In this document: positions 23,006 to 43,430 of the stretch, one piece after another
How the letters are laid out: each line of letters opens with the position of its first letter
Numbering within the stretch: the first letter of the stretch is position 1
Origin: Myxococcales bacterium
GTDB taxonomy: Bacteria > Myxococcota_A > Polyangia > Fen-1088
Length of the DNA stretch: 64,000 bases
Direction: 5' to 3'
Assembly: GCA_022184915.1 (NCBI GenBank)
Contig: JAGTJU010000008.1
Span: 6,760-70,759, forward strand
The notes under the pieces: generated by a model
Database searches by the model: none
Seen by the model: the letters and a program-made list of their open reading frames with translations, nothing else
Told to the model about the DNA's origin: nothing
Position numbers and translations under genes: made by a program

Positions 23006-23020
23006 GGCGTGGCCTCAGCG

Positions 23021-27338: not shown

Positions 27339-27376
27339 CCGGCAGCAAGGCAGAGGATGCGAGGCGGCTTACGTTA
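27338..27376 (+). repeat. repeat-family copy D (5' 39 bp only, ends …CTTACGTTAG)
   Basis: CCCGGCAGCAAGGCAGAGGATGCGAGGCGGCTTACGTTAG directly abutting the ISAzo13-like element. Confidence 0.7.
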
Positions 27377-28707
27377 GGGGCTGCCGCGAAAAAAGTCGAT
27401 CGTCTCGTCATGTCGGTACGGTCGGGTGGATGGTGTAGTTCCACTCGCCGTGGAAGACGTTGGGATCGAGATTCACGAGTGCGAGGTCCTTGTCCGAGAC
27501 GCGGCGACCCTTGGCGTAAGTGCGACTGTCGACTCGGCTCTTCACGAGCAGTCCGGTCGTCGTCGTCGTCGCTGCGATTAGATTGACGATGACTTGATGG
27601 GTGACCAGAGGCTTTCCGCGCCAGTTCTGGGTGATGAAGGAAAACAAGCGGTGCTCGATCTTGTTCCACTTGCTCGTTCCCGGAGGCAGATGACAGACGG
27701 TGATGGGGAAGCGCAGGTCGTCGACGAGCTTTTGTAGCTCGAGCTTCCATAGGCGCAGCCTATAGCCGTTGCTTCCACCTCCGTCCGCCGTGATCACGAG
27801 CGAGGTCGCGTTTGGATACCTCGAGGCGCCCATCTCGCTCCACCAGGTGCGGATGCTCTGCACCGCGAATTCCCCCGTGTCGTGGCTCACGCCAACGCTG
27901 ACCCACGCCTCGTTCTTCTGGAGGTCGTAGATGCCGTACGGTGTGGCGCGTCCCTTTTCGTCGTCGACGAAGTCGTGCACGTTGACATCGACCGGATCTT
28001 CCTTCCCGCTGAGCTCGCGGCCGCCGTTCTTGTACGGTCCGACAAGCTCTCGTTTCTTCGTGTCCACAGAGATCGCCGGCTCGTTCGTTTCGAGCTGTCG
28101 ACGGAGTGTCTCGTTGATGTGCTCAAACTGAGCGTTTCGATCTGGATGCTGCGCGCCCTCAAGCCGCTTGCGATTCGCCTGGAGACTGTAGCCGAGCTCC
28201 TTGAGCAGTCTTGAGACCATCTTCATGCTCGTTTGGTGCCCCTGCTTCTTGAGCGCCTCCACGAGATTGCGCTGGCTACGAGCTGTCCACAGAAGCGGCG
28301 ACTCGGGATCTCCGCGTGTCGTCGATTCTACAAGCTTCTTCAGATCCGGAATCAATCTCGGATCCTTCTCGGTTGCCTTCTTGCGCCCGGCGCCTGGTCG
28401 ACGGCTTCGCGTTGGCGGTAAATGCCTCGCCGTCCCGTTTTCGATCGCCCGTACTTCGGCGATCCCGCGCCCCACCACGCTCGGTGCCATACCCGTCGCA
28501 CGAGATGCAGCGACAATGCCGCCGTAGCCAAAAGCGATCGCCTCGTTCGCCACGAATAGCCGCCGAGCTCTCTCTGTCAGACTCCCCTTTATCTTGCCGT
28601 AGCGATCCCGTATCTCGGATTCACGCCGCGATCGTTCCTTGGTCATGCACCTCCAATGGAGATCCTCCTCGCAGATAAAGTCAACCTATTTATTTCGCGG
28701 CAGGCCC
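27377..28707 (-). mobile_element. ISAzo13-family insertion sequence, copy 1 (1331 bp)
   Basis: Terminal inverted repeats GGGGCTGCCGCGAAAAAAGTCGATCG / (rc) GGGCCTGCCGCGAAATAAATAGGTTGAC. It contains a single 412-aa DDE transposase gene. Identical in length and ORF to the copy at 41814-43144. Confidence 0.75.
27408..28646 (-). CDS. ISAzo13-family (DDE_Tnp_ISAZ013-type) transposase
   Basis: 412 aa. N-terminus MTKERSRRESEIRDRYGKIKGSLTERARRLFVANEAIAFGYGGI… and a DDE region. 100 % identical to the protein of ORF 41875-43113. Confidence 0.75.
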   Translation of the reverse strand: MTKERSRRESEIRDRYGKIKGSLTERARRLFVANEAIAFGYGGIVAASRATGMAPSVVGRGIAEVRAIENGTARHLPPTRSRRPGAGRKKATEKDPRLIPDLKKLVESTTRGDPESPLLWTARSQRNLVEALKKQGHQTSMKMVSRLLKELGYSLQANRKRLEGAQHPDRNAQFEHINETLRRQLETNEPAISVDTKKRELVGPYKNGGRELSGKEDPVDVNVHDFVDDEKGRATPYGIYDLQKNEAWVSVGVSHDTGEFAVQSIRTWWSEMGASRYPNATSLVITADGGGSNGYRLRLWKLELQKLVDDLRFPITVCHLPPGTSKWNKIEHRLFSFITQNWRGKPLVTHQVIVNLIAATTTTTGLLVKSRVDSRTYAKGRRVSDKDLALVNLDPNVFHGEWNYTIHPTVPT

Positions 28708-28744
28708 TAACGTAAGCCGCCTTGCGCCCTAAGCTTGCTGCCGG
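28708..28744 (-). repeat. repeat-family copy E (inverted, 5' 37 bp only)
   Basis: The reverse complement is CCGGCAGCAAGCTTAGGGCGCAAGGCGGCTTACGTTAG. Together with copy D it forms an inverted pair around the IS. Confidence 0.7.
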
Positions 28745-28848
28745 CTCTACGAAATCGTGCAGCGCCGCAAAGAATTGTCGCTGCGCTGGATTGCCGCCCA
28801 CTCGGGCAACCGTTGGAACGAATACGCCGACGCGCTGGCCACGGCCTA
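28730..28848 (+). pseudogene. 3' fragment of an RNase H (rnhA-like) gene
   Basis: YEIVQRRKELSLRWIAAHSGNRWNEYADALATAYRRSVR* resembles the RNase HI C-terminus (…W.KGHAG…NE.AD.LA). No upstream body is present. Confidence 0.4.
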
Positions 28849-29128
28849 TCGCCGTAGCGTGCGTTGAGACAACCGAGAAGCTTCGCAGTGAGTCAGGCGT
28901 GGCAAGGTAGCCTGTGCTTCGATCCAAGCGAATATGAGAATCAAATTCAATTGCCAAGGCTTTTTGGCGATAGAACTCACGCAGCTCGGCGGTCACGTGG
29001 CGAGGCAAGCAGCGACCATTAGCATCGTCCTGCCAGCTTTGCGGGAAGCTGCCGAGGTGCGCCTGCATCACCTGTTCGTGGTGCCGGGGCTTTATCGGCG
29101 GTCAGGCTCACATGTTCGTCCCAGCCGC

Positions 29129-29500
29129 CTAACGGCCGATCGCAATGATCTGCTCCAGCGTGTCGCAGGCCGCATCGAAGGGCTCCTGTGCAACCCGCTT
29201 TAAGGGATGCGGTTTGGCATTGCGTGCGCGCCAATCGAACGACTTAGGCTGATGCCCCAAAATGTAGCTTGTCACACCCGTCGCGCCCTTGAATCGCACG
29301 GCGAACGGGTTTGTCTCATTGAACGCAGCCGTGGTCATCGGCAATCCTATGACGATCCCGGTGCGCAGGTTGAACTCGCGCGGAGAAAGCACCACAAGAG
29401 GATGAATATCCTTCATTTCTCTTCCCGCCTGCGGATTGCAATCGATCCAAATCATGTCTCGTCTATCCGGACACCAGGACGCTTTGGGCGTAGCCACTAC
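29129..29500 (-). CDS. mazF: MazF/PemK-family toxin (endoribonuclease)
   Basis: Probable GTG start overlapping the antitoxin TAG. RRDMIWIDCNPQAGREMKDIHPLVVLS…GIVIGLPMTT follows the RGDIV.VDF.P..G.E…RPALVLS…PITS MazF pattern. Confidence 0.7.
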   Translation of the reverse strand, partial: VVATPKASWCPDRRDMIWIDCNPQAGREMKDIHPLVVLSPREFNLRTGIVIGLPMTTAAFNETNPFAVRFKGATGVTSYILGHQPKSFDWRARNAKPHPLKRVAQEPFDAACDTLEQIIAIGR

Positions 29501-29757
29501 AATGCTTCTTTCCCGCGTGGCACCGTAGCCATCACCTCGCCCCCGTGTTTGACTGGATCGAAGGCAGCTAGCTTCTGTGCGAGGGTGAGCTTGGCTTTCC
29601 CCAAAGACCGCACCACAACTGTTGATTCTTCCGCAACAACTTCCACTGGCTGGCCAATCTCGAAGTGCGCCGAGCGCGCCACTGCAGCGGGAATCCGAAC
29701 CGCCAAGCTGTTCCCCCACTGCTGGACTGTTGAGGTTGATCGCTTTGCGTTGGCCAT
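29497..29757 (-). CDS. mazE: MazE/AbrB-fold antitoxin
   Basis: 86 aa. VQQWGNSLAVRIPAAVARSAHFEIGQPVEV is the SpoVT/AbrB swapped-hairpin motif. Confidence 0.7.
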   Translation of the reverse strand: MANAKRSTSTVQQWGNSLAVRIPAAVARSAHFEIGQPVEVVAEESTVVVRSLGKAKLTLAQKLAAFDPVKHGGEVMATVPRGKEAL

Positions 29758-29851
29758 GTAGATACAAGTATATACACCAAAGCCGGCCGCGGCAAGGGTC
29801 GCACCTAGATGGGGATAGGACGGACAAACACTGCGTCCTATCGCATCAAAA

Positions 29852-31658
29852 ATGTCAACGCAAAGTAGAAATGTCCGCTTTTCTGCAAGTTAGAAATGTC
29901 CTCCATGCGGCGCGTCAGGGGGTATTAGCGGAGGCGGGGTTTTGGCCACTTGTCCATAGATGCACGGCGGGCACGGCCCATGCCCAGGGCAGGTGGCGAC
30001 GTGCAGCTGTGGGCAAGTGCAGGGCCAAAAGCATGCCGCAGCGGCTGGTGAGCTACGCCAGCCGCTACGGCTACGTGGCGCCGTTGGTGCCCCGGTCCAG
30101 GGGGGGGGTCGACGCCTCGCGGGCTGCGGCTCTGCGGGCGCGTGCGGCTTCGGTGTAGCGACGCTGCTTGGCTTTTTGTTCCCGGTCAAACTCTTGCAAA
30201 TAGCTGGCGAAGGCTTCCGCTGCGCCAGGGTTAATGCCCGTGGGCGTTGGTCCCGCTGATTCAGCCTCCGCGCGTTGGGCACGCAATCGTTCCTTTTGTC
30301 GAAGCGTGAGCTTCTTGGACCTAAGACGGGCTTCATCTCGAACCTGCTGCTGCTGCTGAATGACCGCCAGCGCAGTGCCCAATCGATTGTTCTCGACAAT
30401 CTCACCCTGGTTCACGTGGGGACTCTTGTCGAAGAGTGCAAAGGAAAGCGGCTGGTTGTTGTGGCGCAATTGCACTTGGCCGTCTTTCCACAAGTGCACG
30501 CGCACGGTCTTTCCCGCAAGCTTGCTCGTTTCTGTCGTTGGTTCGACCAGATATGAGTTTCTCTGAAACTGCACCACCAGACTCTGCGACAGCTTTCGGT
30601 CCTCTTGCCACGTGAAGATGAGATTCAAGTCCTCGCCCTCAAGCAAGGGACGGTGGGCATTATGAAGACTGCGAGGAGCACGCTCGAAGCGGTTGTTGTA
30701 GGCGTCCATAAAGGCAGGGACGAAGGCATTCGCATCTTCCGCATTGCTGATACCATGAAGCCGCAGCTCCTTGACCAAACGGTCTTGCAGCGTCTTGTTC
30801 ATGCGCTCTACACGACCTTTGGCCTGCGCTGTGTTCGCACAAATGATGTCTATGTTTAGTTCTCCCAATGCGCGACCATACTGCGTGACACCCTTTGCCG
30901 CACCTGTTGAACCTTCCTGGTTTACTCGGAAGATGCTGTGTTTGTCGCTATAGAAGGCCGCTGGCTTTCCATGCTTCCGTACGTAGCTTGCAGTCGCATC
31001 GAAGTAGTCGAAGGCCGATTCCACTTCCACAAAGCGCAGCTCCATCAGCCTTCCCGTGGCATCGTCGATGAACACCAACAGGGTGCATCTTTGTCCGCGG
31101 CCCTCGAACCATTCGTGATCGCTCCCATCTATCTGAACCAGCTCACCAAGACAGTCCCGCCGTCTTCGCGGCTGGTGGATGCGCGGCCCTCGTTGCGCCC
31201 GCGGCGTCCAGATCTCGGCGCCGATCATCCACTTGCGCAACGTCTCCCGGGATACACGAACGCCATGTAGCTCAGTAAGTTTCTCGTGAGCCAACGTCGG
31301 CCCGAAGTCCCTGTAGCGCTCACTGATGAGACCTACGGCGTACTCTTGCACCACCTCCGGCAACTGACGGTTGCTGGGGCGTCCGCGCTTTCGCGACACG
31401 AGAGCCCGAGGCCCTTGACACCTCATGGACTGGCACAATCGGCGCACCTGGCGCTGACTAAGTCCCAGAACCATGGCGGCTTCTGCTTGCGTCAGCCGCT
31501 TTTCCAACACTCGCTGGACGACCTGCATTCGGTCCATTTCCAGCGCGCTCATCGTGACAAGATCCCTGGCCATTGCGGCCCGAGGCTGCCAGGCAGCGGC
31601 GCCCAAAAGAGGACATTTCTAAGTTGCACAAAGCGGACATTTTCACTTTGCGTCTACA
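29852..31658 (-). mobile_element. IS21-family element (type 2), istA only, no istB
   Basis: Ends are TGTCAACGCAAAGTAGAAATGTCCGC and (rc) TGTAGACGCAAAGTGAAAATGTCCGC. Only ~220 bp remain beyond the istA stop. Fragments of this element also occur at 9203-9394 and 12203-12489. Confidence 0.75.
30071..31606 (-). CDS. istA: IS21-family transposase IstA
   Basis: 511 aa, HTH plus DDE. A paralogue of 9550-11133. Confidence 0.85.
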   Translation of the reverse strand: MGAAAWQPRAAMARDLVTMSALEMDRMQVVQRVLEKRLTQAEAAMVLGLSQRQVRRLCQSMRCQGPRALVSRKRGRPSNRQLPEVVQEYAVGLISERYRDFGPTLAHEKLTELHGVRVSRETLRKWMIGAEIWTPRAQRGPRIHQPRRRRDCLGELVQIDGSDHEWFEGRGQRCTLLVFIDDATGRLMELRFVEVESAFDYFDATASYVRKHGKPAAFYSDKHSIFRVNQEGSTGAAKGVTQYGRALGELNIDIICANTAQAKGRVERMNKTLQDRLVKELRLHGISNAEDANAFVPAFMDAYNNRFERAPRSLHNAHRPLLEGEDLNLIFTWQEDRKLSQSLVVQFQRNSYLVEPTTETSKLAGKTVRVHLWKDGQVQLRHNNQPLSFALFDKSPHVNQGEIVENNRLGTALAVIQQQQQVRDEARLRSKKLTLRQKERLRAQRAEAESAGPTPTGINPGAAEAFASYLQEFDREQKAKQRRYTEAARARRAAAREASTPPLDRGTNGAT

Positions 31659-31728
31659 TCAGAAAGCCCGATAAAATATGTTCTGTCAACTAACGTAAGC
31701 CGCCTTGCGCCCTAAGCTGGCTGCCGGG
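31659..31728 (-). repeat. repeat-family copy F (full ~70 bp)
   Basis: The reverse complement is CCCGGCAGCCAGCTTAGGGCGCAAGGCGGCTTACGTTAGTTGACAGAACATATTTTATCGGGCTTTCTGA. It directly follows the IS21 terminus. Confidence 0.7.
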
Positions 31729-31783
31729 CGCCTCGGCGTCAGACCAGACGGGGTTTTTCTTTTCTTCCGGGCGCAAGATACTC

Positions 31784-34330
31784 ATGGATGCCGAGACTCC
31801 GAATTCTATGACCCCACCGCGCACGTCTGTGCCCTTCGCCGCTGCGCTGGCGCTTGCGTTGACGAGCGGCGCTGCGGCGCTGGGTCACGAGCTGCTGTGG
31901 ACGCGGCGGTTGCTGGATGTCACGGGAAGCAGCGCCGCGTCGGGTACGCGCGTGTTTGGCGCGTTTTTCCTTGGTCTTTCGCTTGGCGCTCTCGTGATCG
32001 CGCGGCACTCTGTCTTCACGAGGCGGCCCTGGCTTTGGCTTGCACTGGCCGAGCTCGCGATCGCCGCGCTCAGCGCTCCTCTACTTTTCCTACCAGAATT
32101 CACAGACTGGATTTGGCCCTGGCTCGGCCGCGCGCCTCTGACGGGCGCGGCGGGAGGGGCCATCAAGCTCCTGGTGTCTATCGTGTTCGTCTGCCCACCC
32201 GCCGTGATGATGGGCACCACGCTGCCGCTGTTGGCCGCTGCCGCGGTGGATGCGCAGCCCAATATGGCACGCCATGGGATTTGGCTCTACGGCGCAAACA
32301 CGGCGGGAGGCGTGCTTGGTCTCATCCTGGTGCTGCTCGTGCTCATGCCCGTGCTAGGGGTGCGGGGCGCGATGACGATGATCCTCCTCAATGCGATCGT
32401 GGCGGGGGTGGCCTTTGGGTTCGCGCGTTCCCGCCCGCGGGCGGCTGCGGCGCGGCCCCTTCCACGCGGCGACGTGGCCGAGGGAACACGCCCCCCTCGT
32501 TGGGTCATCGCGCTGGCGGCCTTTTCGGGCTTCGGAATTCTCGCCGCTGAGGTGATCGCGCTACGCCTCCTCATGCTCCTGGCCACCACTTCCTTGCACG
32601 CTCCGTTCGGGGTGCTGGTCGCTGTGATCCTCGCGCTGGCCGCGGCCGCCTTTGCAACGCCGCTCGTGCGTACGTCCCTGTCCCTGCAGGCGGTGACGGC
32701 GTTCGCGCTGGTTGCCGCGGGCCTGTGCTTCGCGCTTGCGCCCTTTCTCTTCGTCCAAGTGGCGGCCCATCCCGATTGGCTCAGCGCCGCGGGGGCGGGC
32801 GCTTTCGTTGCGCGGTTGGCTCTGCTCACGCTCGCGGTGATCGGCCCTGGCGTGTTGTTTGCGGGAACGGTGTTTCCAAACCTGTTTCGTTTGGCACGTG
32901 GTCGCAACGGTCATGCCTCGGCTCTCGCGTGGTTGCTCGCGGCCAACGGTCTGGGCGGTCTGATTGGCGCCGAAGTGGCGTATCGAGGGCTGTTGCCCTG
33001 GCTCGGACCACACGTCGCGTTGGGCGCTGTCGGGCTGCTCTACGTCGTGGCCGGTGCCTTGATGGCGGCGTTGGCAAAGTCGATGCGGCACGTATTTCTG
33101 GCGGCCCCGGTGCTCGCTGGGGTCGTGGCGCTCGTGTTCGTGCCCTTGAGGAATCTGCCCATCGTGAACCCCCACATGAACTTCGCCATCATCGCGCAGG
33201 AAAGTGGACGTGAGGGCACGCTGGTGGTGGCCGACCACCCGCAGATGGGGCGCCTGATGCTGGTCGACAACCAGTATGTGCTCGGAAGCACGAGCGCTCG
33301 CCACGATCAAGAACGCCAGGCCCACCTCGCGTTGCTGCTGCATCCGCTCCCGCGGCGTGTGGCCTTCATCGGGGTAGCCACTGGCATGACGCCCGGGGCG
33401 GCGCTGATGCATCCCGAGGTGCAAGCCATCGAGGCGATCGAGCTCTCCGAAGTGGTGACACGTATGGCCCGCCAGCACTTCGGCGATGTCAATCATCACG
33501 TGCTGGATCACGAAAAGGTGACGGTAGCCGTTGAGGACGGACGCAGCTATCTGGCCGCTGCACAGGACGCCTTCGACGTCGTTGCGGGGGATCTGTTTTT
33601 GCCGTGGGGCGCGGGGGCGGGAAGCCTTTACAGCCTTGAACACTTTCGCGCCGTCAAGCGTGCCCTTCGGGAGGGAGGGCTGTTTTGCCAGTGGTTGCCG
33701 GCCTACCAGCTGACGAGCGATCAGCTCACCCTCATCATCAACACCTTCCTTCAGGTGTTCCCCGAGGCGGAGCTGTTTCGCGGCGGGTTTCATCCCGACC
33801 GGCCAACGCTTGCGCTGATCGGCCTCAAGGGGCCCGGCCTCGATTGGAACGTTGTGCGCCAGCGCGCCGACGCCTTGCGCGCGCGTGATGACGTCAAGGA
33901 CCCGAGCGTGCGTTCACAAGAGGCCCTGGCGCTGCTTCACCTTGGCCCTGCAGCGCCGCTGGTGCAGCCCGCGACGCCTGTGAACACGCTGGCCAACATG
34001 CTGTTCGAGCGCGATGCCAGCAAGGTCCGTCTTTCCGGGGGCGGCCAGGGACTCTATCTCTACAATCGCAACTGGACCACGTTCCTCGAAGGCCGCTACC
34101 GACATTTGGGCTCGGGCGCGGCTGAACTCACTCGGTCAGAGGCCGTGCGAAGGTGGGCCCGTCTCGGCATCATGCTCACCAACTGGGAGATAGCCCGTCG
34201 CACAGGGCATGCATCGGCCCCGGATCTGCAGCGGCAGATTGCGCAGGCGTTTCCGCGCTCGGTGGCCGCCGACCATGGCGCGGACTGGTCACATTGGCCC
34301 GGACTCGGCCGATGGCAACTCGAGCGCTGA
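31784..34330 (+). CDS. fused polytopic membrane domain + spermidine-synthase-like (aminopropyltransferase-fold) protein
   Basis: 848 aa. About 12 TM helices in the first ~500 aa. The C-terminal HPLPRRVAFIGVATGMTPGAALMHPEVQAIEAIELSEVV…VAVEDGRSYL…DVVAGDLFLPWG… is a SpeE-like SAM-binding fold. Confidence 0.6.
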   Translation: MDAETPNSMTPPRTSVPFAAALALALTSGAAALGHELLWTRRLLDVTGSSAASGTRVFGAFFLGLSLGALVIARHSVFTRRPWLWLALAELAIAALSAPLLFLPEFTDWIWPWLGRAPLTGAAGGAIKLLVSIVFVCPPAVMMGTTLPLLAAAAVDAQPNMARHGIWLYGANTAGGVLGLILVLLVLMPVLGVRGAMTMILLNAIVAGVAFGFARSRPRAAAARPLPRGDVAEGTRPPRWVIALAAFSGFGILAAEVIALRLLMLLATTSLHAPFGVLVAVILALAAAAFATPLVRTSLSLQAVTAFALVAAGLCFALAPFLFVQVAAHPDWLSAAGAGAFVARLALLTLAVIGPGVLFAGTVFPNLFRLARGRNGHASALAWLLAANGLGGLIGAEVAYRGLLPWLGPHVALGAVGLLYVVAGALMAALAKSMRHVFLAAPVLAGVVALVFVPLRNLPIVNPHMNFAIIAQESGREGTLVVADHPQMGRLMLVDNQYVLGSTSARHDQERQAHLALLLHPLPRRVAFIGVATGMTPGAALMHPEVQAIEAIELSEVVTRMARQHFGDVNHHVLDHEKVTVAVEDGRSYLAAAQDAFDVVAGDLFLPWGAGAGSLYSLEHFRAVKRALREGGLFCQWLPAYQLTSDQLTLIINTFLQVFPEAELFRGGFHPDRPTLALIGLKGPGLDWNVVRQRADALRARDDVKDPSVRSQEALALLHLGPAAPLVQPATPVNTLANMLFERDASKVRLSGGGQGLYLYNRNWTTFLEGRYRHLGSGAAELTRSEAVRRWARLGIMLTNWEIARRTGHASAPDLQRQIAQAFPRSVAADHGADWSHWPGLGRWQLER

Positions 34331-34622
34331 GACGGAAGTGGTTCGAGGCGAAGGAGCGACTGCACGCGGCCGAAGTCCCTGTGTCGAACCGTTCTTACGC
34401 AATTGACTTGCAGAATATAAATAAAATGCAGAAATGAATGAGTTGCATTAATTCGGGCTGCGGGCTAGGGTACATGAGCGTCGGGCGGCAGGGGCGGGTC
34501 AGCCAGGGTTCGTGAAAAGTCCGTGGCGGGGTGTGGGGCCACTCCCGGCGCAGTTTCCTTCCCCAGCAGGAGGGGGACCCTCTACGTGTGCGTCCCGGCG
34601 CCGCCCATGGCCGTGATGGCGG

Positions 34623-35244
34623 CTAGCCACCGATTACAAAGCCGAACCGCGCCTGATCAGTGCGGCCATCGGCCAACTCCACGTTCACGGTCGTAAGCCA
34701 GTACCCTGGCATGAACAAATTCACGGGCGCGGCCTGATACTGACCTGACTGAGGCCCCGACGTCACGACGACCGTCGTTCCGGACCCATGTCCATGGTCC
34801 GGCATGCGAGGCACCACCGTAACTCTCGCCCCCTCGGGCCGCGTGCCGTCGATTGGCCTCACGAGCAACGACCACTGGCTTTGTCCCTTCAGGGGTGGCG
34901 GAGGCGTCGCCTCGAGAAGGGTGACCTCAATGAGGCCTCTTTCACCTGTTGCCACCATGCCGGGAACGAAGACCAGCGCCCGCGCGTCGCGTGGGTCCAC
35001 CTGAAGCGGGGGGGGCCGCGTCCCCCGGCGGACTTTGCCCCAGGCCTTCGTCGTTCCTTTCCCCTGCGTCCTCGGTTGGTCCTTGGCCGAGAGGCGCAGG
35101 GCCAGCCGCATCCGTCGGGGAGGGGGCCGGGTCATCGCAGCCGGCCAGGACGAGCAGGGCCCAGAGCGGCGCCAGAGCGAGGAACTCCCCCCGGCGGATG
35201 CGGCTTCCGGGCCTTCCTCTGCGAATCAAGGCGCGCAGCAACAT
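34623..35244 (-). CDS. lipoprotein, reading frame broken at a G/C8 homopolymer (35008-35015)
   Basis: The signal/lipobox MLLRALIRRG…LLVLAGCDD lies in one frame (TGATG-coupled to the upstream cytochrome gene). The conserved-looking body …VFVPGMVATGERGLIEVTLLEAT… lies in the -1 frame. The switch maps to the C8 run. Confidence 0.4.
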
Positions 35245-36122
35245 CAATCCGAGACCTTGATGGTCGCGGCTACGGGTTGCAACTGGGTCCGCACATACTG
35301 GACCGCCCGCTCGATCTCCGCCCGCGAAAACACCTTGTGGTACGGCGACATGTGGGAGAAAGCTGAACCATCGGGCAGGCGACCGATGGACCCGAAGGCT
35401 ACCATGCGCGCCTGTTCCGCGGCAGAACGCTTTTCGAGCCAGTTCGCGATGGTGCGACCGCCGGCCTGCTCCTGCTCGCCGGGCATGAAGTAGACTTTGA
35501 ACTTGGTCAGGTCGACAGCTTGGCCAGACCAATCCGCATGGCAATTCGTGCAGGCGCGGGGCCCGGTCTCGGGCAGCATCGCCTCGTAGACCTCTTTACC
35601 CGTTTTTCCCGCGTCGGCAGGCAACACGACGCAGCTAATCCCGTTGCAGCCATTCGTTCCCGCACAGGTGTGTTCGGTCGTGACGCCGGGATCCCAGTCC
35701 CCGTAGGAAAAGCCCGCGCAGCTGTTGACGCCCGCGCAGGCGGCGTGCACCTGCGTGTAGCCTGCGCGCTGATCACAGGCTTGCTTGATCTCCGCGAAGG
35801 TGCGGGTGCCTTCCGTTTCCAGAGTGACCATGGGTCCCACGGGAGCTGCCGCGTCCGCAGGGGCAGGGGCCGCGTCGGGAAGCGAACAAACTCCCCCATC
35901 GCTTGGCCCGGCATCGGCTTGCGGGGGAGGGCAGGAGCACATCGACGACGCGTCGAGGACCACGGGGTCGGGTTCCATGGTCGCATCGTCACTGCATCCC
36001 AGAGCCCCGACGCCCAGCAAGCCGGTCAGGGCGCTGGTCATCAGGGCACGCGTGGGCGTGCTCGCGACGTTCGAGGGAAGGGCCGGTGCGATGAGGCTGA
36101 AGAGGCGAGCTCTACGGGACAT
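35244..36122 (-). CDS. lipoprotein with a single CxxCH haem-c-binding motif (cytochrome-c-like)
   Basis: Lipobox LLGVGALGCSDD, Cys-rich, with CTNCH at about residue 205. Confidence 0.5.
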   Translation of the reverse strand: MSRRARLFSLIAPALPSNVASTPTRALMTSALTGLLGVGALGCSDDATMEPDPVVLDASSMCSCPPPQADAGPSDGGVCSLPDAAPAPADAAAPVGPMVTLETEGTRTFAEIKQACDQRAGYTQVHAACAGVNSCAGFSYGDWDPGVTTEHTCAGTNGCNGISCVVLPADAGKTGKEVYEAMLPETGPRACTNCHADWSGQAVDLTKFKVYFMPGEQEQAGGRTIANWLEKRSAAEQARMVAFGSIGRLPDGSAFSHMSPYHKVFSRAEIERAVQYVRTQLQPVAATIKVSD

Positions 36123-36253
36123 GGTTTCCTCTGTAGTCGTTGACGGCCCGGAAGGCCCAAGTTACGTGAAGTGCGCATCCTCTCCGCGATGGCGGTTCGT
36201 GGGAATGCGACACTTTGTCGCAGGGAGCTTTTTCCGCTGCGGATCGTAGGAAC

Positions 36254-36880
36254 TCACTTCAAGATGGCGCGCATGTCTCGAAAACCCGCCGTATCGGGCG
36301 GAGACACATCGAACCCCTCGGTCCCGATATCGACCGAAACCGTGTGGTTAGCCCCCGCGCCGTTGCGATCGGTGAGCTCCATTCTCAGTGCGTAACCCCC
36401 TGCAGCGATCTCACACCCGTGCAAATCCCGAAGGTCCCAAACAACCTCGTGAACCGTGTGTCCCGTCAAGGTAGCACCCGTGATGGCATCCACCTCGTTG
36501 CCCCCCGAGACGGCGAGCCAGGCCGAGAGCCACTTGGCGCGCACGTTGCCCCACGAAGCGAGCGTACGGACGAACTGCCCTTGGCTCGTCTCCATCCAAA
36601 TGGCGCCCACGTTCTTGGGTGCGAAGCGGCCTCCCAGGGGAGCCGTGCGGACCGTGAAGGTGAGCGTGCGTTCAGATCGTGGAACCGCGCACGCCGGATT
36701 GTTGTCCGGAGCGTCCGCAGACCCTGCATCTCGGACGAACAGCTCGGTAGGCAGGGTAAGCGCGTCGGTGTCAAGGAAGTCTTTGGCTGGGTCTGTCGGG
36801 TAGCAGGCCGTGAGGCAAACCAGGACGAGAGCCGAAAGCCACGACGCGCGAGCGGGTGCGCCCTGTTTCTGGGTTCGTTC
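36254..36880 (-). CDS. lipoprotein, hypothetical (start codon not identified)
   Basis: The C-terminal ~200 aa of ORF 36254-37999 are protein-like (signal …WLSALVLVCLTACYP, then a beta-rich domain ending DMRAILK). The upstream 380 aa of that ORF are an antisense artefact. No ATG is present near the signal peptide. Confidence 0.4.
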   Translation of the reverse strand, partial: ERTQKQGAPARASWLSALVLVCLTACYPTDPAKDFLDTDALTLPTELFVRDAGSADAPDNNPACAVPRSERTLTFTVRTAPLGGRFAPKNVGAIWMETSQGQFVRTLASWGNVRAKWLSAWLAVSGGNEVDAITGATLTGHTVHEVVWDLRDLHGCEIAAGGYALRMELTDRNGAGANHTVSVDIGTEGFDVSPPDTAGFRDMRAILK

Positions 36881-37954
36881 GTCGTGGGGGCGTTCTCCTG
36901 CGGGGGGCCTGCTCGGACCACGTTGGCCTCGTCCTCCGTCTACGTGCGGGCGGATACCGACCGCACCACCGTCGTCTCCCCGGAGATTCGCGCCGCGGCC
37001 GCGGTGGGAGAGAGGGTCACCGTCGAGGCCTCCGAGGTCGTGGATGCGTGGACGGGCGCCTCGATCGACGTCATCACGGCTGCCACCGGCACCATCCGCG
37101 AGCGGCGCTTCGAGACGAACGCCCAGGTGGGCTACAGGGGTGACCTCTGGGCGTTCGCCCTGGGGCTTCGGCACTCTTTCGAGAACGACTACGGGTCTTT
37201 GGGGGGCTCGCTGCGGCTGGCGGCTGACGTCTTCCAGCGCAACACCACCTTGGCTTTGGTGGGTTTTGGAAGCACGGATGCAGTGGGACGTGCGGGAGAT
37301 CCAGGCTTCCGCCGCGGGGTCGTGCAGCTGGGGGGGCGTGTCTCCGTCACGCAGGTGTTGACGCGTTCGACGCTGGCCGAGTTGCAGTGGGAGAGCGTTC
37401 GCCTCGAAGGATATCAAGCGAGTCCCTATCGCTTCGTGGGCGTTGGTGGCGATGGCGTGTGTGGGGGGCGAGCGGTGTTCTGTCTGCCCGAACATGTACC
37501 GGACGGTCGTCTGCGCAACGCACCCTCGATCCGGTTGCGCCAGGCGCTCTCCACCCGCGCCTCTTTGGGTTGCGATTATCGCTTCTACTTCGATTCTTGG
37601 GGCTTGCAGTCCCACACCATCGAACCTGACCTTGCCTGGCTGATGGGGCGGTCGGGAACGTTGAGCGTAAGCTTTCGCCATCACACGCAAGGACGGGCTG
37701 ACTTTTACCGCGCTCGTTACCTTGGTCTCGACGGCAGTGAAGGATTTTTTACGCGTGATCGCAAGCTCTCGACGTTCTCGTACCATGGTGTGGGACTCTC
37801 CTACGTTCACGATCTGAGGCTTCGCGACGAGGGTACGGTCCTGCAACTGGGGGCTCGTGCCGCCTTTACACGATTTCATTATCTGGAGTTCCTTGGGCTT
37901 GAACGGGTATCGGTGCTCGAGACCACGGCGTACGTCGCCTTGCGCTTCGAGTGA
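36810..37954 (+). CDS. outer-membrane beta-barrel-like protein (DUF3570-like pattern), 5' end uncertain/frameshifted
   Basis: From ~36840: RRASGCALFLGSFVVGAFSC (signal-like), then alternating-hydrophobic beta-strand sequence through …TAYVALRFE. The ATG at 36810 is in a different frame, so either a frameshift or a non-ATG start is needed. Confidence 0.4.
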
Positions 37955-38679
37955 CGTCGGCGCAGGTGACGACCCGCAACGAGGGCGAGACAAGCCCATG
38001 GCACAGACGGGATGCTCCCCCCGGCGGCGGACAGTGAACAGCCCGCCAGGGGTGTGCCTTCGGCGCGCAGTTCGTGACGAACTTCGAGCACACCGTCACC
38101 TTGGCTGTCGCCTGCGCTGTTTGAAAGCACCACCCCGAGTGCGAAGGTCAGCGACTTCGTCGGGGGCGCTGTAAAGGAGAGCGAGACCTCGCTGGCGCCG
38201 CAGTCGAGAACACCCACCACGCGCCGGAAACCAAGGTCATGCGCGTAAAACGCAGGTGGCGCGCTACCGACTTCGTCGCAGCGGGATGCTGGGTTCGCCT
38301 CGGCAGCAGGGGGCAATGTCACGGGAGGTGAACGGCCGAGGTCATCCATCAGTTCCATTTGCAGTGCGTGAGAGCCCCGATCCGGTGGCCAGCTCAGAGT
38401 GAGATTGTAGGTGGCGCCGGGAATGAAGGTGCGGGGCAGGGCGCTCTCGACGGGGGCGTCGTTCGTGAGGTTCCGCCAGGCGATGGCCACGACCGGCTCG
38501 GGGCCTCCCTCGTGGCATACACCGCAGCCAAACCCATCACCTGGCGCTCCCGTGAATTGTCTGCCCCCGCCACCGCCCTCCAGCGCCGGCAGCGCGAAGC
38601 GCCCGGGGTCCGAGAACGCCTGCGCAGATGAAGGAGCTGCAAGACCTGCGAGGCAGAACGCGGCCATCAGTGGCTTCAT
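37879..38679 (-). CDS. secreted CxxCH-motif protein with MYXO-CTERM-like C-terminal sorting tail
   Basis: Signal MKPLMAAFCLAGLAAPSSAQA, CGVCHEG, and a C-terminal …GCSLSAAGGSIPSVPWACLALVAGRHLRRRH (GCS, hydrophobic stretch, RRR). Confidence 0.5.
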   Translation of the reverse strand: MKPLMAAFCLAGLAAPSSAQAFSDPGRFALPALEGGGGGRQFTGAPGDGFGCGVCHEGGPEPVVAIAWRNLTNDAPVESALPRTFIPGATYNLTLSWPPDRGSHALQMELMDDLGRSPPVTLPPAAEANPASRCDEVGSAPPAFYAHDLGFRRVVGVLDCGASEVSLSFTAPPTKSLTFALGVVLSNSAGDSQGDGVLEVRHELRAEGTPLAGCSLSAAGGSIPSVPWACLALVAGRHLRRRHSKRKATYAVVSSTDTRSSPRNSR

Positions 38680-39137
38680 CGAAGAGTCTCCGCGGTCACG
38701 GCCCAGAAAAAGAGCGCCTCCCATCGGGGATCCCTCTTTGTCAGATAGATGCTTTGGCCCCAGGGGTCGTCACCCGCGTGACCTGCACCGCCTGCCTCCA
38801 CGGCCAACGGTTTTCGAAGGAGGGGGCCGCGCCGGACGCCGGATTCGCCCGCCAGCATGGAGGCCGCTCGTGTATACGCGAGGGCCAGCTCCTCAGCCGT
38901 GGGAGGATCGAAGAGGGCCGTCGCTGGGTCGAGCCGGGTGCGCCCGGGGCCGTGCACGCGAAAGAAGCGCTGTTCGTTTCCGTGACAACCCGAGAACGCG
39001 CAGTCGGCGAGCAGAATCGGATAGACGGTGGACGCAAACGCCGCAGGGTCGGGGCGGGGGGGGGACGCCTCCTCGGGAGGGGGTGCGCAGGCCCACAGGA
39101 TCGAGCCGACGAAGCACGCGCCCCATCGCCTCAGCAT
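38676..39137 (-). CDS. small secreted protein with CAFSGCH motif
   Basis: Signal MLRRWGACFVGSILWACA, 153 aa. It is overlap-coupled between the DUF2063 gene and the CxxCH-protein gene. Confidence 0.45.
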   Translation of the reverse strand: MLRRWGACFVGSILWACAPPPEEASPPRPDPAAFASTVYPILLADCAFSGCHGNEQRFFRVHGPGRTRLDPATALFDPPTAEELALAYTRAASMLAGESGVRRGPLLRKPLAVEAGGAGHAGDDPWGQSIYLTKRDPRWEALFFWAVTAETLR

Positions 39138-40015
39138 GGGTCTACGCCCTCCCAGAAGCCGAACTTCACCGACTCGGCAAGCCAGGCCTTCACAAGGTGC
39201 GAAAGACGAGTGGGGGGCAAAGCGATGGCTTCACGCTCGAGAGCCGCCAGGGCCTCGGCCAGCGGCAATTCCGACAAGCGTTCGTAGAGACGTGCCTGCA
39301 ATTCGTCGATCAGCCACAGGCGAGGCCCGGTTTCGCCCCTTACGAGGGCGGCGTGAACCCGCCGGGGGTGTTGCGGGGGTAGGGGCACGGGGGCTTCTGG
39401 AGGGAGTGAGGTCAAGCGGCTGCGCAACGCGAGCAGGGGCCAGTCTTCCTCGACCAAAAAGAACCGACCCGAGGGACGAAGGCGGCCCGTGGCCAGCTGG
39501 TCCGTGCCGACTCGCTGAAACGCACGCGACGTCTCCGCCCGGGGTTCCGGGGCCCAAAAAGCTGCACGGTACGCAGCATCGATGCGAGCGGCCTGGACGA
39601 GCGCCGTGGCGGATACGGCCGCACCCTCGAACGGCGGGAGTCCTGCGTTGTGACCTTGCGCGAGCCAATCGTCGAAGCCGAGGGCAACCTCCCCGAGGTC
39701 GTGCCCCCGGGGTGGGTGCTTTTCCAGGAAGCCTGCGACCAAACCGTTGAAGCCCCAAGCCCCCGCCAGTGCCGCGACCAGGCGATACTCGTTTTGCATG
39801 ACCGCGAACAAACGAAACCAGTACTGTCGCTGGTAGACCGCCAGCCTTTCGCCGGGACTGAGCCCATGGCCCGCTTTGGCCTCGTTCAACAGTCGACGAG
39901 GATAGTCTTCAGGACGGGCTCGCAGCGTCCGCGACCTGCGGTCCAGGGGCGTTCTCAGGACGTCAGAGAAGTCTCTCTGAAACTGCGCGAGCCAGGCAGG
40001 GCCTGCCAGGGTCAT
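39131..40015 (-). CDS. DUF2063-family protein (MNIO partner; BufC/HvfC-like)
   Basis: Start at MTLAGPAWLAQFQRDF (ATGA overlap with the DUF692 stop). RLAVYQRQYWFRLFAVMQNEYRLVAALAGAWGFNGLVAGFLEKHPPRGHDLGEV matches the DUF2063 core (vYrnn…FP…G…F…HPP…L). Confidence 0.6.
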   Translation of the reverse strand: MTLAGPAWLAQFQRDFSDVLRTPLDRRSRTLRARPEDYPRRLLNEAKAGHGLSPGERLAVYQRQYWFRLFAVMQNEYRLVAALAGAWGFNGLVAGFLEKHPPRGHDLGEVALGFDDWLAQGHNAGLPPFEGAAVSATALVQAARIDAAYRAAFWAPEPRAETSRAFQRVGTDQLATGRLRPSGRFFLVEEDWPLLALRSRLTSLPPEAPVPLPPQHPRRVHAALVRGETGPRLWLIDELQARLYERLSELPLAEALAALEREAIALPPTRLSHLVKAWLAESVKFGFWEGVDPC

Positions 40016-40956
40016 GCGCGGACCTTTCGTGCCTCGGCGAGTTCCTCGATGACGACCTCGAGGGGTGGTATCGCTGCGTCCCACTCGACGAGCGTAGGAA
40101 AGGGCCCCCCCAAAGCCCAGGCGAAGCGATAGAGCTCCCAAACCTCCCGAATGATGGGTTGGTCGTGGGTGTCGATGATCGTTCCATCCGGCTGTTTCGT
40201 GTGGCCAGCGAGGTGCACCTGCAGCACGCGCGAGTAGTCGATCGCCTCGAGGTACACCCGTGGGTCGAAGCCGTGGTTGACGCTCGAAACGTACACGTTG
40301 TTGATGTCCAACATGAACCAGCAGCCTGAGTCTTTGACGACGCGGGAGTAAAACTCCCACTCCGGCATGGAGGAGCGCTCGAATGCGACGTAGGTGGACA
40401 GGTTCTCGATGCCAAAGGGCCGGTCAAGCCGGCGCTGCACTTCACAAGCACGCTCTGCAGCCAGCTCGACGAGCTCGGGGACATAAGGGGTGGGCAGCAG
40501 GTCGTGGTGCGAGACGCCTTCGGCCCCCGACCAGCACAGGTGATCGGTGACGAAAGGCACCGCGAGAGCATTGGCCAGATCGGTGACCTTCTGCAGGTAC
40601 TCTTCGTCGAGAGGCGCGTGTCCCAGGAGGTTCAGCGTCACCCCGTGCATGACCACGGGATAGAGGGCACGAATCCGTGCCAGATGCCGGTTGGGTGGTG
40701 AGTCTGGACGAAGATAGTTCTCCGTAATGATCTCGACGTAATCAACGGGTGGTTTGGTCGTCTGGAGTGCGTCGTAAAACGGGGGCCGGAGCCCAACGCC
40801 CAGGGCGTCGCGGGCGAGGGCAGGCCTGGCGGTGTCTTTGGCCTTTGGAGACACGAGCCCGGGAGGGTACCTCAGGATCGTTCTGCCTCCCCTGCGGCAA
40901 TAGGTCGCACCCCCTGACCTTGCCCCCGGGGCTGGCTGGCGGCACCCTCGTGGCAT
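40012..40956 (-). CDS. DUF692/MNIO-family enzyme (BufB/HvfB-like)
   Basis: LGVGLRPPFYDALQTTKPPVDYVEIITENYL… HGVTLNLLG… FMLDINNVYVSSVNHG… LQVHLAGH is a canonical DUF692 domain. The true start may be a GTG near 40851 rather than the first ATG. Confidence 0.7.
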   Translation of the reverse strand: MPRGCRQPAPGARSGGATYCRRGGRTILRYPPGLVSPKAKDTARPALARDALGVGLRPPFYDALQTTKPPVDYVEIITENYLRPDSPPNRHLARIRALYPVVMHGVTLNLLGHAPLDEEYLQKVTDLANALAVPFVTDHLCWSGAEGVSHHDLLPTPYVPELVELAAERACEVQRRLDRPFGIENLSTYVAFERSSMPEWEFYSRVVKDSGCWFMLDINNVYVSSVNHGFDPRVYLEAIDYSRVLQVHLAGHTKQPDGTIIDTHDQPIIREVWELYRFAWALGGPFPTLVEWDAAIPPLEVVIEELAEARKVRA

Positions 40957-41185
40957 GCAGGATCGCAGTTTGCGCACACGTCTCGGCCTTCTTGCCTGCG
41001 CGCTTCTTTCGTTCCTCACGGGCTGCCTGCGTGTTCCGCCCTACCTGCGAGAGACCCTGGCCCGACGCGACATGACCCTGGGGCGGGAGGCCGCCCTTCG
41101 AGCGGGGGAACGCCACGCGCAGGCCTACCGAGAAGGTGCGAGTGGGGGAGGAGAGGTCCGAAGTGGAGGTTGCGGGTGCAACTGA
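40955..41185 (+). CDS. 76-aa lipoprotein ending in GGCGCN (candidate MNIO substrate/precursor)
   Basis: Lipoprotein signal MQDRSLRTRLGLLACALLSFLTGC, then a 52-aa mature peptide ending …GGGEVRSGGCGCN*. It is divergent from the DUF692-DUF2063 operon. Confidence 0.4.
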   Translation: MQDRSLRTRLGLLACALLSFLTGCLRVPPYLRETLARRDMTLGREAALRAGERHAQAYREGASGGGEVRSGGCGCN

Positions 41186-41689
41186 CGCGCCGGGCGCATC
41201 GCACGTTCGAGCGGTCTCACGGCCGCATGCGTCACGCTGGGCGGAGACGTCAACAGTGTTCAGCTTGACCTGAGGGCGCTCTTCGATACCGTCTCCGCGG
41301 AGACTACGATGACCATGGTCATGGTCATGTGCCGACCGTGTGATCGTTGCCACCGCTCTGGGAAAGGGCCTCCCCTTGTTGACCAAAGATGAGAGGATCC
41401 ACGGGTTCGCTGACGTCACCTCTATCTGGTGATGGCCATGCCACGGGGCTCGCGCCAACGTGAAATGGTGTTCAGCACCAGGCCGCCCACACGCCGTCGC
41501 AAAGGCGTTTGGCCTCCAAGTGTGCTTGTGAATCCGTCCGTTTCGGGCGACGCTCGGGTTCCGAGGGAACTGCGTGGTGTGGACGTGTCGATGAGTGGCG
41601 AGCCGATCATCCGAGAGCGCCTGCAGAGGTTCGTGGAGCTCATGCAACGCGTGGTTTCCCTGCGTTTCCACGTCACCGATGCGCAGGGG

Positions 41690-41795
41690 GGTGGATAGGA
41701 AGTTTAAAGGAGACAACGCGTCGAGTCAGAAAGCCCGATAAAATATGTTCTGTCAACTAACGTAAGCCGCCTTGCGCCCTAAGCTGGCTGCCGGG
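41690..41795 (-). repeat. repeat-family copy G (longest, ~106 bp, includes the GTGGATAGGAAGTTTAAAGGAGACAACGCGTCGAGTCAGA extension)
   Basis: …GGTGGATAGGAAGTTTAAAGGAGACAACGCGTCGAGTCAGAAAGCCCGATAAAATATGTTCTGTCAACTAACGTAAGCCGCCTTGCGCCCTAAGCTGGCTGCCGGG. Confidence 0.7.
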
Positions 41796-41813
41796 CAAAG
41801 GAATCGTCAGAAA

Positions 41814-43144
41814 GGGCCTGCCGCGAAATAAATAGGTTGACTTTATCTGCGAGGAGGATCTCCATTGGAGGTGCATGACCAAGGAACGATCGCGGCGTGA
41901 ATCCGAGATACGGGATCGCTACGGCAAGATAAAGGGGAGTCTGACAGAGAGAGCTCGGCGGCTATTCGTGGCGAACGAGGCGATCGCTTTTGGCTACGGC
42001 GGCATTGTCGCTGCATCTCGTGCGACGGGTATGGCACCGAGCGTGGTGGGGCGCGGGATCGCCGAAGTACGGGCGATCGAAAACGGGACGGCGAGGCATT
42101 TACCGCCAACGCGAAGCCGTCGACCAGGCGCCGGGCGCAAGAAGGCAACCGAGAAGGATCCGAGATTGATTCCGGATCTGAAGAAGCTTGTAGAATCGAC
42201 GACACGCGGAGATCCCGAGTCGCCGCTTCTGTGGACAGCTCGTAGCCAGCGCAATCTCGTGGAGGCGCTCAAGAAGCAGGGGCACCAAACGAGCATGAAG
42301 ATGGTCTCAAGACTGCTCAAGGAGCTCGGCTACAGTCTCCAGGCGAATCGCAAGCGGCTTGAGGGCGCGCAGCATCCAGATCGAAACGCTCAGTTTGAGC
42401 ACATCAACGAGACACTCCGTCGACAGCTCGAAACGAACGAGCCGGCGATCTCTGTGGACACGAAGAAACGAGAGCTTGTCGGACCGTACAAGAACGGCGG
42501 CCGCGAGCTCAGCGGGAAGGAAGATCCGGTCGATGTCAACGTGCACGACTTCGTCGACGACGAAAAGGGACGCGCCACACCGTACGGCATCTACGACCTC
42601 CAGAAGAACGAGGCGTGGGTCAGCGTTGGCGTGAGCCACGACACGGGGGAATTCGCGGTGCAGAGCATCCGCACCTGGTGGAGCGAGATGGGCGCCTCGA
42701 GGTATCCAAACGCGACCTCGCTCGTGATCACGGCGGACGGAGGTGGAAGCAACGGCTATAGGCTGCGCCTATGGAAGCTCGAGCTACAAAAGCTCGTCGA
42801 CGACCTGCGCTTCCCCATCACCGTCTGTCATCTGCCTCCGGGAACGAGCAAGTGGAACAAGATCGAGCACCGCTTGTTTTCCTTCATCACCCAGAACTGG
42901 CGCGGAAAGCCTCTGGTCACCCATCAAGTCATCGTCAATCTAATCGCAGCGACGACGACGACGACCGGACTGCTCGTGAAGAGCCGAGTCGACAGTCGCA
43001 CTTACGCCAAGGGTCGCCGCGTCTCGGACAAGGACCTCGCACTCGTGAATCTCGATCCCAACGTCTTCCACGGCGAGTGGAACTACACCATCCACCCGAC
43101 CGTACCGACATGACGAGACGATCGACTTTTTTCGCGGCAGCCCC
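41814..43144 (+). mobile_element. ISAzo13-family insertion sequence, copy 2 (inverted relative to copy 1)
   Basis: Same 1331-bp element as 27377-28707 with the same termini. Only the flanks differ. Confidence 0.75.
41875..43113 (+). CDS. ISAzo13-family transposase (identical to 27408-28646)
   Basis: 412 aa identical. The ORFs nested on the opposite strand (41843-42205 and others) mirror those of copy 1. Confidence 0.75.
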   Translation: MTKERSRRESEIRDRYGKIKGSLTERARRLFVANEAIAFGYGGIVAASRATGMAPSVVGRGIAEVRAIENGTARHLPPTRSRRPGAGRKKATEKDPRLIPDLKKLVESTTRGDPESPLLWTARSQRNLVEALKKQGHQTSMKMVSRLLKELGYSLQANRKRLEGAQHPDRNAQFEHINETLRRQLETNEPAISVDTKKRELVGPYKNGGRELSGKEDPVDVNVHDFVDDEKGRATPYGIYDLQKNEAWVSVGVSHDTGEFAVQSIRTWWSEMGASRYPNATSLVITADGGGSNGYRLRLWKLELQKLVDDLRFPITVCHLPPGTSKWNKIEHRLFSFITQNWRGKPLVTHQVIVNLIAATTTTTGLLVKSRVDSRTYAKGRRVSDKDLALVNLDPNVFHGEWNYTIHPTVPT

Positions 43145-43430
43145 TTAGTCTCAGGGGTAAAGCACTCAAGGAGGCCGCGGCCACTCTTGACATAAGCGTG
43201 AAAACAGTTGAGCAGTATTGGGCGCGGATCTACGTCAAGATTGGCTGCAATAGCCGGGAAGCTGTTGTAGGCCAGCTTGTTGAAATGATGACTGAAAGCC
43301 CAGATAACTATTTATCAGACCCACGCACAAGCGGCCGTGCCTAGGACGTTCCAAGCGCGAGACGTCCATGTGTCCTATTTTGGCGTGCGTACAGGAACTA
43401 CAAGCGCCACGTCCCTCCGCGGCAAATTTG

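Follow-up and report, generated by a model that had tools for sequence, protein, structure and literature searches.

Two inverted copies of an ISAzo13-family element

A 64,000-nt stretch of the metagenome-assembled genome (MAG) of a Myxococcales bacterium (contig JAGTJU010000008.1, positions 6,760 to 70,759; called the window below) carries two copies of one insertion sequence (IS) of the ISAzo13 family in inverted orientation. Copy 1 is located at 27377-28707 on the minus strand, with its transposase open reading frame (ORF) at 27408-28646, and the identical copy 2 at 41814-43144 on the plus strand, with its ORF at 41875-43113. Our overall reading, which we consider probable, is a real IS pair with rearranged flanks around a mosaic interval, and no composite unit. 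A repeat search over 25-46 kb and over the whole window returned only one long inverted pair, 27376-28708 and 41813-43145, whose arms of 1333 nt were 100% complementary with 13,104 nt between them. Each arm consists of the 1331-bp element and one chance-complementary base at each end. The element boundaries were placed from the four junction readings and from alignment to the ends of the closest relatives.

One intact ORF with an ATG start, encoding the transposase of 412 amino acids (aa), was found in each arm. It matched Pfam PF07592 over the full profile (1-308 of 308, E value 1.4e-135) and the NCBIfam model NF033519 'ISAzo13 family transposase' at 549 bits against a cutoff of 200 (profile 4-387 of 387). 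An earlier reading, made from the letters and ORFs of the window and called the sequence-only reading below, had proposed two identical inverted copies with these coordinates, this 1331-bp length and this family, and the repeat search, the junctions and both models agree with it. It had also called the copies recent, which is borne out by their 100% identity. The imperfect terminal inverted repeats, GGGCCTGCCGCGAAATAAATAGG and GGGGCTGCCGCGAAAAAAGTCG, align with the ends of four relatives (L002, L003, L005 and L064). At least four accessions, on four contigs of the source MAG, have exactly this 412-aa sequence, and variant and partial copies exist besides, so the IS is multi-copy and evidently active. 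Its closest relatives, with 79-82% protein identity, were in Myxococcota MAGs among the GTDB species representatives. The element is a new isoform of a known family. The pair as such is ordinary: two recent copies of an active, multi-copy ISAzo13-family element.

Target duplication in relatives of the element

The loci of 80 relatives of the transposase were taken from GTDB species representatives, the source genome not being among them. Termini were aligned end-to-end for each element and then tabulated in a fixed register, and 57 relatives were counted. Their ends read T-W-A / GG...CC / T-W-A. The same triplet stood on both sides in 40 of the 57 (TTA/TTA in 21, TAA/TAA in 19), with C before the triplet in 32 and G after it in 33. 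On these alignments the family duplicates 3 bp, normally T-W-A and usually within C-TWA-G.

Complementary triplets flanked the other 17 relatives, a few of which were mis-registered. Such TTA...TAA or TAA...TTA flanks, in about a quarter of the relatives (within L002-L081), come from unrelated genomes and are too many for an inversion every time; a TA duplication at TTAA or CTAG may be raised here as a question, not as an answer.

Flanks of the two copies and the broken genes

In transposase orientation copy 1 reads ...GGCTTACGTTA-IS-TAACGTAAGCC... and copy 2 reads ...AATCGTCAGAAA-IS-TTAGTCTCAGG.... The four flanks are named a (left of copy 1, ...GGCTTACGTTA, the reverse complement from 28708 onwards), b (left of copy 2, ...GGAATCGTCAGAAA, 41797-41813), c (right of copy 1, TAACGTAAGCCGCCTCGC..., the reverse complement of the sequence ending at 27376) and d (right of copy 2, TTAGTCTCAGGGG..., from 43145 onwards). 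The flanking triplets are TTA/TAA at copy 1 (a and c) and AAA/TTA at copy 2 (b and d), so a matching 3-bp T-W-A duplication stands at neither; the sequence-only reading had looked to target duplications of 2-8 bp at the IS ends as a check, and none that matches is there. The missing duplication points to rearranged flanks, not to an element outside the ISAzo13 family.

The two flanks of copy 1, 27337-27376 and 28708-28746, are inverted copies of one sequence of about 40 nt and are about 80% alike, just as the sequence-only reading had described for a 39-bp segment. The 40-mer was matched three times with up to 3 mismatches allowed (0 expected); its 17-nt core was matched six times (0.04 expected). 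Alignment of eight ends and a profile search identified this '39-bp repeat' as the outer end (38-40 nt) of a repeat of about 113 nt, named M here, with 11 copies or fragments in the window. The sequence-only reading had seen it as compatible with a past inversion, either of the IS copies or of repeat units, and we reread it as the outer 38-40 nt of a family of ~113-bp repeats with a dif-like core.

Both tips at copy 1 abut broken genes. M4 is the outer 40 nt, or tip, of M (27337-27376, plus strand; nhmmer M positions 1-41, E value 3.6e-10) and is cut by copy 1 after TTA. The 5' fragment of a miaB-like gene, frameshifted (27182-27336, plus strand; tblastn to P0022, 90% over residues 59-87), ends exactly at this tip. 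M5 is the outer ~39 nt of an M copy of a different sequence subtype (28708-28746, minus strand; nhmmer M positions 3-41, E value 1.9e-9), cut at the same position as M4, and the 3' fragment of an RNase HI gene, encoding the last 40 aa (28745-28867, plus strand; 85% identity to P0001 residues 41-80), starts exactly at it. Copy 1 joins the outer 38 nt of these two different M copies, one at the miaB 5' stump and the other at the RNase H 3' stump, and in both the insertion point is the TTA that borders the XerD-like arm of M on its outer side (ACG-TTA/G-TTGACAGAA, cut at the slash).

At copy 2 the right flank is a canonical site in a luxR-type gene, and the left flank does not match it. Only the 3' fragment of this LuxR/GerE-type helix-turn-helix gene is present (43144-43344, plus strand; GerE E value 3.3e-7, profile positions 16-54 of 57), cut by the copy at a CTTAG-type site; a homologue search with the LuxR stump gave no match. 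The missing halves (miaB 3', rnhA 5' and luxR 5') are nowhere in the 64-kb window. Because copy 1 stands between two different broken genes and these halves are absent from the window, rearrangements seem to have taken place at the IS ends.

One short-read contig of a relative with 97% identity (L083, SRR32583943) already has the miaB-M junction, but there only 22 nt of the M tip are left before the unrelated sequence TGATCAAACCTGACG.... The part of the tip left in L083 corresponds to 27337-27358 of the window; the unrelated sequence is absent from the window, and L083 also differs left of 24209. An NCBI contig with an RNase H fragment (L082) has only 88 nt in common with the window and is not syntenic. 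A single insertion of M4 tip, IS and M5 tip as one piece had been suggested by a 5-bp CTACG duplication and an in-frame ORF join. It was rejected as coincidence, the stumps belonging to miaB and to RNase H.

Repeat M and its dif-like core

M is built of a sharply bounded outer tip of 40 nt, directly inside it an 11-6-11 dif-like core (AAGCCCGATAA-AATATG-TTCTGTCAACT), and then about 45 nt of conserved inner sequence. Its outer edge, CCCGGCAGC..., is a sharp breakpoint in every copy. Full copies are located at 6296-6412 and 12489-12600 on the plus strand and at 41686-41796 and 43382-43494 on the minus strand. Copies interrupted by an IS are at 11205-11278 and 31656-31729 (both minus), tip-only copies at about 27337-27377 (plus) and 28707-28746 (minus), and internal fragments at 4934-4977, 12169-12212 and 29810-29856.

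Three further copies lie within or beside the interval. M6 (31659-31729, minus strand) consists of TCAGA, the core (31664-31691) and the tip, and is 100% identical to 41726-41796, which is part of M7. The latter is full length (41686-41796, minus strand; core 41731-41758), with 17 nt between its tip and IS copy 2. M8 (43382-43494, minus strand) has its core at 43428-43455.

Predicted dif sites are AGGTCCGATAA-CATGCG-TTATGTAAACT for Myxococcus xanthus, GGATCGCATAA-GAAACA-TTATGTCAACT for Sorangium and ACGTCCGATAA-TATGGA-TTATGGTAACT for Anaeromyxobacter (Kono et al. 2011, supplement). Compared with these predicted Myxococcales sites, the M core agreed at 9 of 11 positions of the XerC arm and 10 of 11 positions of the XerD arm. 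It resembles a dif-type site for XerC/D and is a putative site of their binding and recombination.

M was not found in the 84 fetched loci or in plasmids, and the sole exact match in JGI metagenomes was a chance one, inside an AT-rich gene. A transposase for M was not found either. An IS91/ISCR-like Y2 transposase of 500 aa is encoded at 43609-45111, directly outside M8; it scored 351 bits with the ISCR clade Ia model, below the cutoff, and has full and partial copies on other contigs of the MAG. M was tried on this account as the oriIS end of an IS91/ISCR element and was rejected: six M ends, as single-stranded DNA, gave z values of +0.5 to +2.2, no better than shuffled sequence, and inverted M pairs occur without such a gene. 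M was also compared with the inverted repeat of the Tn3 family on the basis of its inner ACGTTAG, similar to ACGYTAAG, and of the toxin-antitoxin cargo, and the window showed neither a Tn3 transposase nor a GGGG terminus.

Inverted M copies (49 nt, 96% complementary) bound a 4983-bp unit at 6296-11278, which contains a hipB-like gene with hipA, an IS3-type OrfA fragment and nested IS1202 elements. The unit has the appearance of a separate module, and no duplication was seen at its flanks. A Phd/YefM antitoxin and PIN toxin pair at 11414-12099 lies between two M copies, and a PIN-like C-terminal remnant at 41340-41432 is next to M7.

An IS1202-family element beside the core

The sequence-only reading had placed an IS21 element between the two copies. 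The element at 29853-31658 on the minus strand is instead a member of the IS1202 family (ISAjo2 subgroup), with its transposase at 30071-31606, TGT...ACA ends and repeated internal sites. Its 511-aa transposase and a 527-aa paralogue at 9550-11133 scored 485 and 481 bits with NF033594 (ISNCY; cutoff 250) and are about 50% identical to the transposases of ISKpn21, ISLad2 and Acinetobacter ISNCY elements. With the IS21 model the same two proteins gave only 29-36 bits against a cutoff of 160. The IS21 identity of 29853-31658 was rejected on its score of 29 bits, on the lack of an istB gene with the element and on its length of only 1.8 kb.

Elements of the ISAjo2 subgroup of the IS1202 family ('dif site hunters') have TGT...ACA ends, internal transposase-binding repeats and 5-bp duplications; their distance to the XerC arm of a dif or pdif site is always 5-6 bp, and their orientation is always the same (Harmer, Pong & Hall 2023, PMC10132070). 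In the window, the element at 29853-31658 ends with ...ACA, which is followed by TCAGA (31659-31663) and then by the C arm of M6 (31664-31674). The element at 9387-11206 also has TGT...ACA ends, and its 6-bp duplication CGCCGC (9381-9386 and 11207-11212) abuts the C arm at 11213-11223. IS1202 remnants at 9210-9380 and from 12208 to about 12400 are found at this same place, with 5-6 bp between them and the XerC-like arm of an M core. As these insertions stand at the published distance, they give independent support for the M core as a Xer-type site.

One of the IS1202 elements lies nested against what remains of a second one. Around 29853-31658 the flanks differ (AAAAA and TCAGA), a hint that copies have recombined here too.

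Putting these features together, we would suggest, tentatively and with more doubt than confidence, that M belongs to an undescribed kind of small mobile module in Myxococcota. Such a module would have terminal repeats of about 40 bp, each followed by a functional dif-like XerC/D site, and would carry toxin-antitoxin genes and possibly genes for ribosomally synthesized and post-translationally modified peptides (RiPP). Modules would pile up near the replication terminus, and IS1202 and ISAzo13 elements would insert into them, the latter at the XerD-arm edge. If this were true, the modules would be shuffled or resolved by the Xer system of the host in addition to RecA action on the IS pair. The M repeats may be transposon termini, Xer-dependent modules or both.

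Contents and mosaic structure of the interval

The interval between the two copies, 28708-41813, is a mosaic. Its left part, 28708-31729, is debris of mobile elements, and from 31730 to about 41600 follows a block conserved in related populations. The left part holds the RNase H stump, the mazEF toxin-antitoxin pair and the IS1202 element inside an M copy. The pair is located at 29129-29757 on the minus strand (mazE 29497-29757, mazF 29129-29497), with a PemK_toxin match at E value 2.6e-16, a match to NF007386 and a MazE-like translation.

A fused major facilitator superfamily (MFS)/spermidine synthase gene is at 31784-34330 on the plus strand (PF01564), its product being 100% identical to MCG5055976.1 of a Myxococcales MAG. 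Domain matches identified a BufC-like gene (DUF2063/HvfC_N, 39131-40015) and a BufB-like gene (MbnB/TglH/ChrH, 40012-40977), which together occupy 39131-40977 on the minus strand. Two secreted proteins in the interval have one CxxCH motif each. Apart from the IS21, which is the ISNCY/IS1202-family element described above, the contents listed by the sequence-only reading (BufB/C-like genes, mazEF, fused spermidine synthase and cytochrome-c lipoproteins) were recovered, the last of them as the two secreted CxxCH proteins.

A DUF3570 protein is encoded at 36215-37954 on the plus strand. On the same strand, a small lipoprotein ending with GGCGCN (40955-41185) overlaps the BufB-like ORF of the opposite strand in its over-long upstream extension; it may resemble DUF4266, which we take to be the usual partner of DUF3570. 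A G-rich run, GGGTCGGGGCGGGGGGGGGACGCC..., is found at 39046-39083, and the short-read contig L085 of a relative ends just before it, at window position 39032.

In short-read contigs of related populations (SRR32583943, SRR32583940 and SRR32583971), the match to the window, at 99.5-99.7%, begins at about 31730 and reaches to 39032, 35949 and 41568, respectively. By contig, L085 and L086 show 99.5-99.7% identity from 31721, and L088 shows 99.55% up to 41568. A further contig, L087, shows 99.99% over 31701-41602. Left of 31730, L085 and L086 carry a different gene and the left half of a terminator hairpin, both absent from the window, which has the tip of M6 instead. The part at 28708-31729 is thus foreign to the conserved block.

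These comparisons bear on the view of the sequence-only reading that the 13 kb could be mobilised as a composite unit, and on the stronger form of it, in which the whole 15.8-kb unit of IS, 13 kb and IS was inserted in one piece as a composite transposon. Both outer flanks are TTA (27374-27376 and 43145-43147), as a 3-bp duplication would give, with a chance expectation of about 0.5 for a TWA-targeting IS. However, most of the supposed cargo, 31730-41568, is present in relatives at 99.5-99.7% identity with a different left neighbour and without the adjacent debris, and the interior is itself cut by M repeats and by the IS1202 element. A second occurrence of the IS-bounded unit was not found, and the closest homologue of the spermidine-synthase fusion outside the lineage is only 49% identical. 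Insertion as a composite transposon is therefore very improbable in our view. Comparison with relatives, another check named by the sequence-only reading, recovered the segment 31730-41568 and not the whole 13 kb as one unit, and the 13.1 kb probably did not arrive as one unit between two IS copies.

Competing histories of the pair

In our overall reading of a real pair with rearranged flanks, the two copies lie in a stretch that is crowded with other mobile DNA, and both would have been rearranged at their IS ends after insertion. Possible routes would be recombination between the identical copies and a deletion or inversion caused by intramolecular transposition. An exchange within the IS alters none of the four junction sequences, so that information can come only from which flank is paired with which.

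The sequence-only reading had considered that an inversion between the IS copies may already have occurred. In such a history the 13.1 kb was inverted between these two copies, by RecA or by one-step intramolecular 'duplicative inversion' transposition, and one flank of each was swapped. Cross-pairing of the M5 tip (a) with the LuxR flank (d) gives a perfect TTA/TTA duplication, and one inversion between IS copies at the same TTA of two M copies accounts for the tip-IS-tip arrangement and the complementary TTA/TAA at copy 1. In addition, the last 9-10 nt of flank b (CGTCAGAAA, then the first G of the IS) agree with the M consensus on the inner side of the XerC arm and have the right orientation, so that b and c would rebuild one M lacking only its 25-nt dif-like core. 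By our estimate the chance of this match is about 0.001-0.003 in random sequence, and about 0.02-0.03 given the local abundance of M.

Other observations speak against the inversion. Since all targets are TTA or TAA, the coincidence of TTA with TTA is worth only about 1 bit, and the other 8 nt of the 17-nt flank b are unlike M. The flanks of copy 2 are not the expected M interiors; a 25-nt deletion on the left and luxR sequence replacing the M5 interior on the right are needed. At +0.037, the GC skew of 31730-41685 agrees in sign with the DNA on the left (+0.012 to +0.056) and not with that on the right (-0.032), which argues against a recent net flip, and the missing gene halves are not inside the interval. 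The flank evidence points both ways, and we give the inversion somewhat less than an even chance.

An account in which no inversion took place requires roughly as many events. In it, two independent IS-associated deletions occurred and the present orientation is the older one; our belief in it also stops a little short of one half. Copy 1 could have come from a deletion between two direct copies or from an intramolecular hop from one M to another, and copy 2 could have been inserted into luxR with an adjacent deletion following.

It might also be argued that the pair is an artefact of assembly, with copies that are not truly identical, or with placement and orientation chosen by the assembler among identical copies. 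At least four or five identical copies are present in the genome, polishing to a consensus can make repeats uniform, and short-read contigs end at repeats. Against this, the unique DNA on all four sides is found at 99.99-100% identity in an independent short-read assembly, up to the repeat edges, and MAG contigs of up to 1.8 Mb suggest long reads, which would easily span 1.3 kb. Such an artefact seems to us highly unlikely.

Several points weigh against our overall reading. How the flanks are linked across each 1.3-kb IS is taken from a single MAG assembly. Contigs assembled from short reads of the same population stop at each repeat, so that they confirm the unique segments and not their order. 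Other IS copies in the genome may hold partner flanks that would change the history. Finally, about one quarter of the family members elsewhere have complementary TTA/TAA flanks, which alone are no proof of a rearrangement at copy 1; the argument for that rearrangement rests on the two different broken genes and not on the triplets.

Whichever history applies, the pair would be a present-day substrate for RecA-dependent inversion, as the sequence-only reading had stated, and this is legitimate for a perfect inverted repeat of 1.3 kb. The orientation of the interval is not to be trusted from a single assembly.

A possible replication terminus and other features of the window

In the window, cumulative GC skew reaches its maximum at 42,777, the segments on the left having +0.012 to +0.056 and the segment 45.2-64 kb having -0.032. 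The terminus may be near 42.8 kb, and one of the M cores could then be the real dif, 64 kb being a short baseline for such a placement.

A second and larger RiPP-like cluster is located at 16198-23917, outside the interval bracketed by the IS copies. It encodes a PRMT-like methyltransferase, an Asp/Arg beta-hydroxylase, two proteins of tetrapyrrole-methylase fold, a B12-binding radical SAM enzyme, a pentapeptide-repeat protein and a second member of the MbnB/TglH/ChrH family (23021-23917). At 22241-22628 there are 8.1 tandem copies of a 48-bp unit with 95% matches, in an ORF that ends in pentapeptide repeats, and the short-read contig L001 ends within this array.

Significance and comparison with known systems

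The IS pair matters only locally: it shows that an active ISAzo13 element is reshaping a region with bufferin-type RiPP genes, toxin-antitoxin pairs and a polyamine gene. The dif-like repeat family, an incidental by-product of this analysis, is more unusual than the pair: a dense array of dif-like sites inside a longer repeat, visited by IS1202-type elements at the published distance of 5-6 bp. Such an array would extend 'dif hunting' and an organisation similar to dif modules from Acinetobacter and enterobacterial plasmids to Myxococcota, and the M cores are concrete candidate sites for XerC/D.

Two identical inverted IS copies around a gene-carrying interval recall composite transposons of the Tn10/Tn5 type and IS-bounded segments that are invertible by RecA. 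In contrast to the former, the unit here was not seen moving as one piece, and its interior is largely resident DNA in relatives. In contrast to the latter, only one orientation was seen here, in one assembly.

With the ISAzo13 family the element shares a single 412-aa DDE transposase that matches the full models, a length of 1.33 kb and imperfect terminal repeats of about 20 bp starting with GGG. It is different in that neither copy retains a matching target duplication, whereas relatives duplicate T-W-A.

As in the ISAjo2 subgroup, both IS1202-type elements point their transposase-proximal end at the dif-like site and leave 5-6 bp between themselves and its XerC-side arm. However, the host here is a myxobacterium, the transposases have 511-527 aa compared with 441-457 aa, and the targets are repeated sites inside a 113-bp repeat rather than pdif sites of plasmids.

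The array of M is similar to the dif modules of Acinetobacter plasmids and to integrative mobile elements exploiting Xer (IMEX) at dif. Many 11-6-11 dif-like sites lie close together, small cargo such as toxin-antitoxin pairs (HipBA, Phd/PIN and MazEF) is bracketed by them, and IS1202-type elements stand beside. Unlike in dif modules, the conservation of M reaches 40 nt past the XerD arm and about 45 nt past the XerC arm, and its outer edge truncates unrelated genes (miaB and rnhA) and splits a terminator, which is more like a transposon terminus than a Xer crossover.

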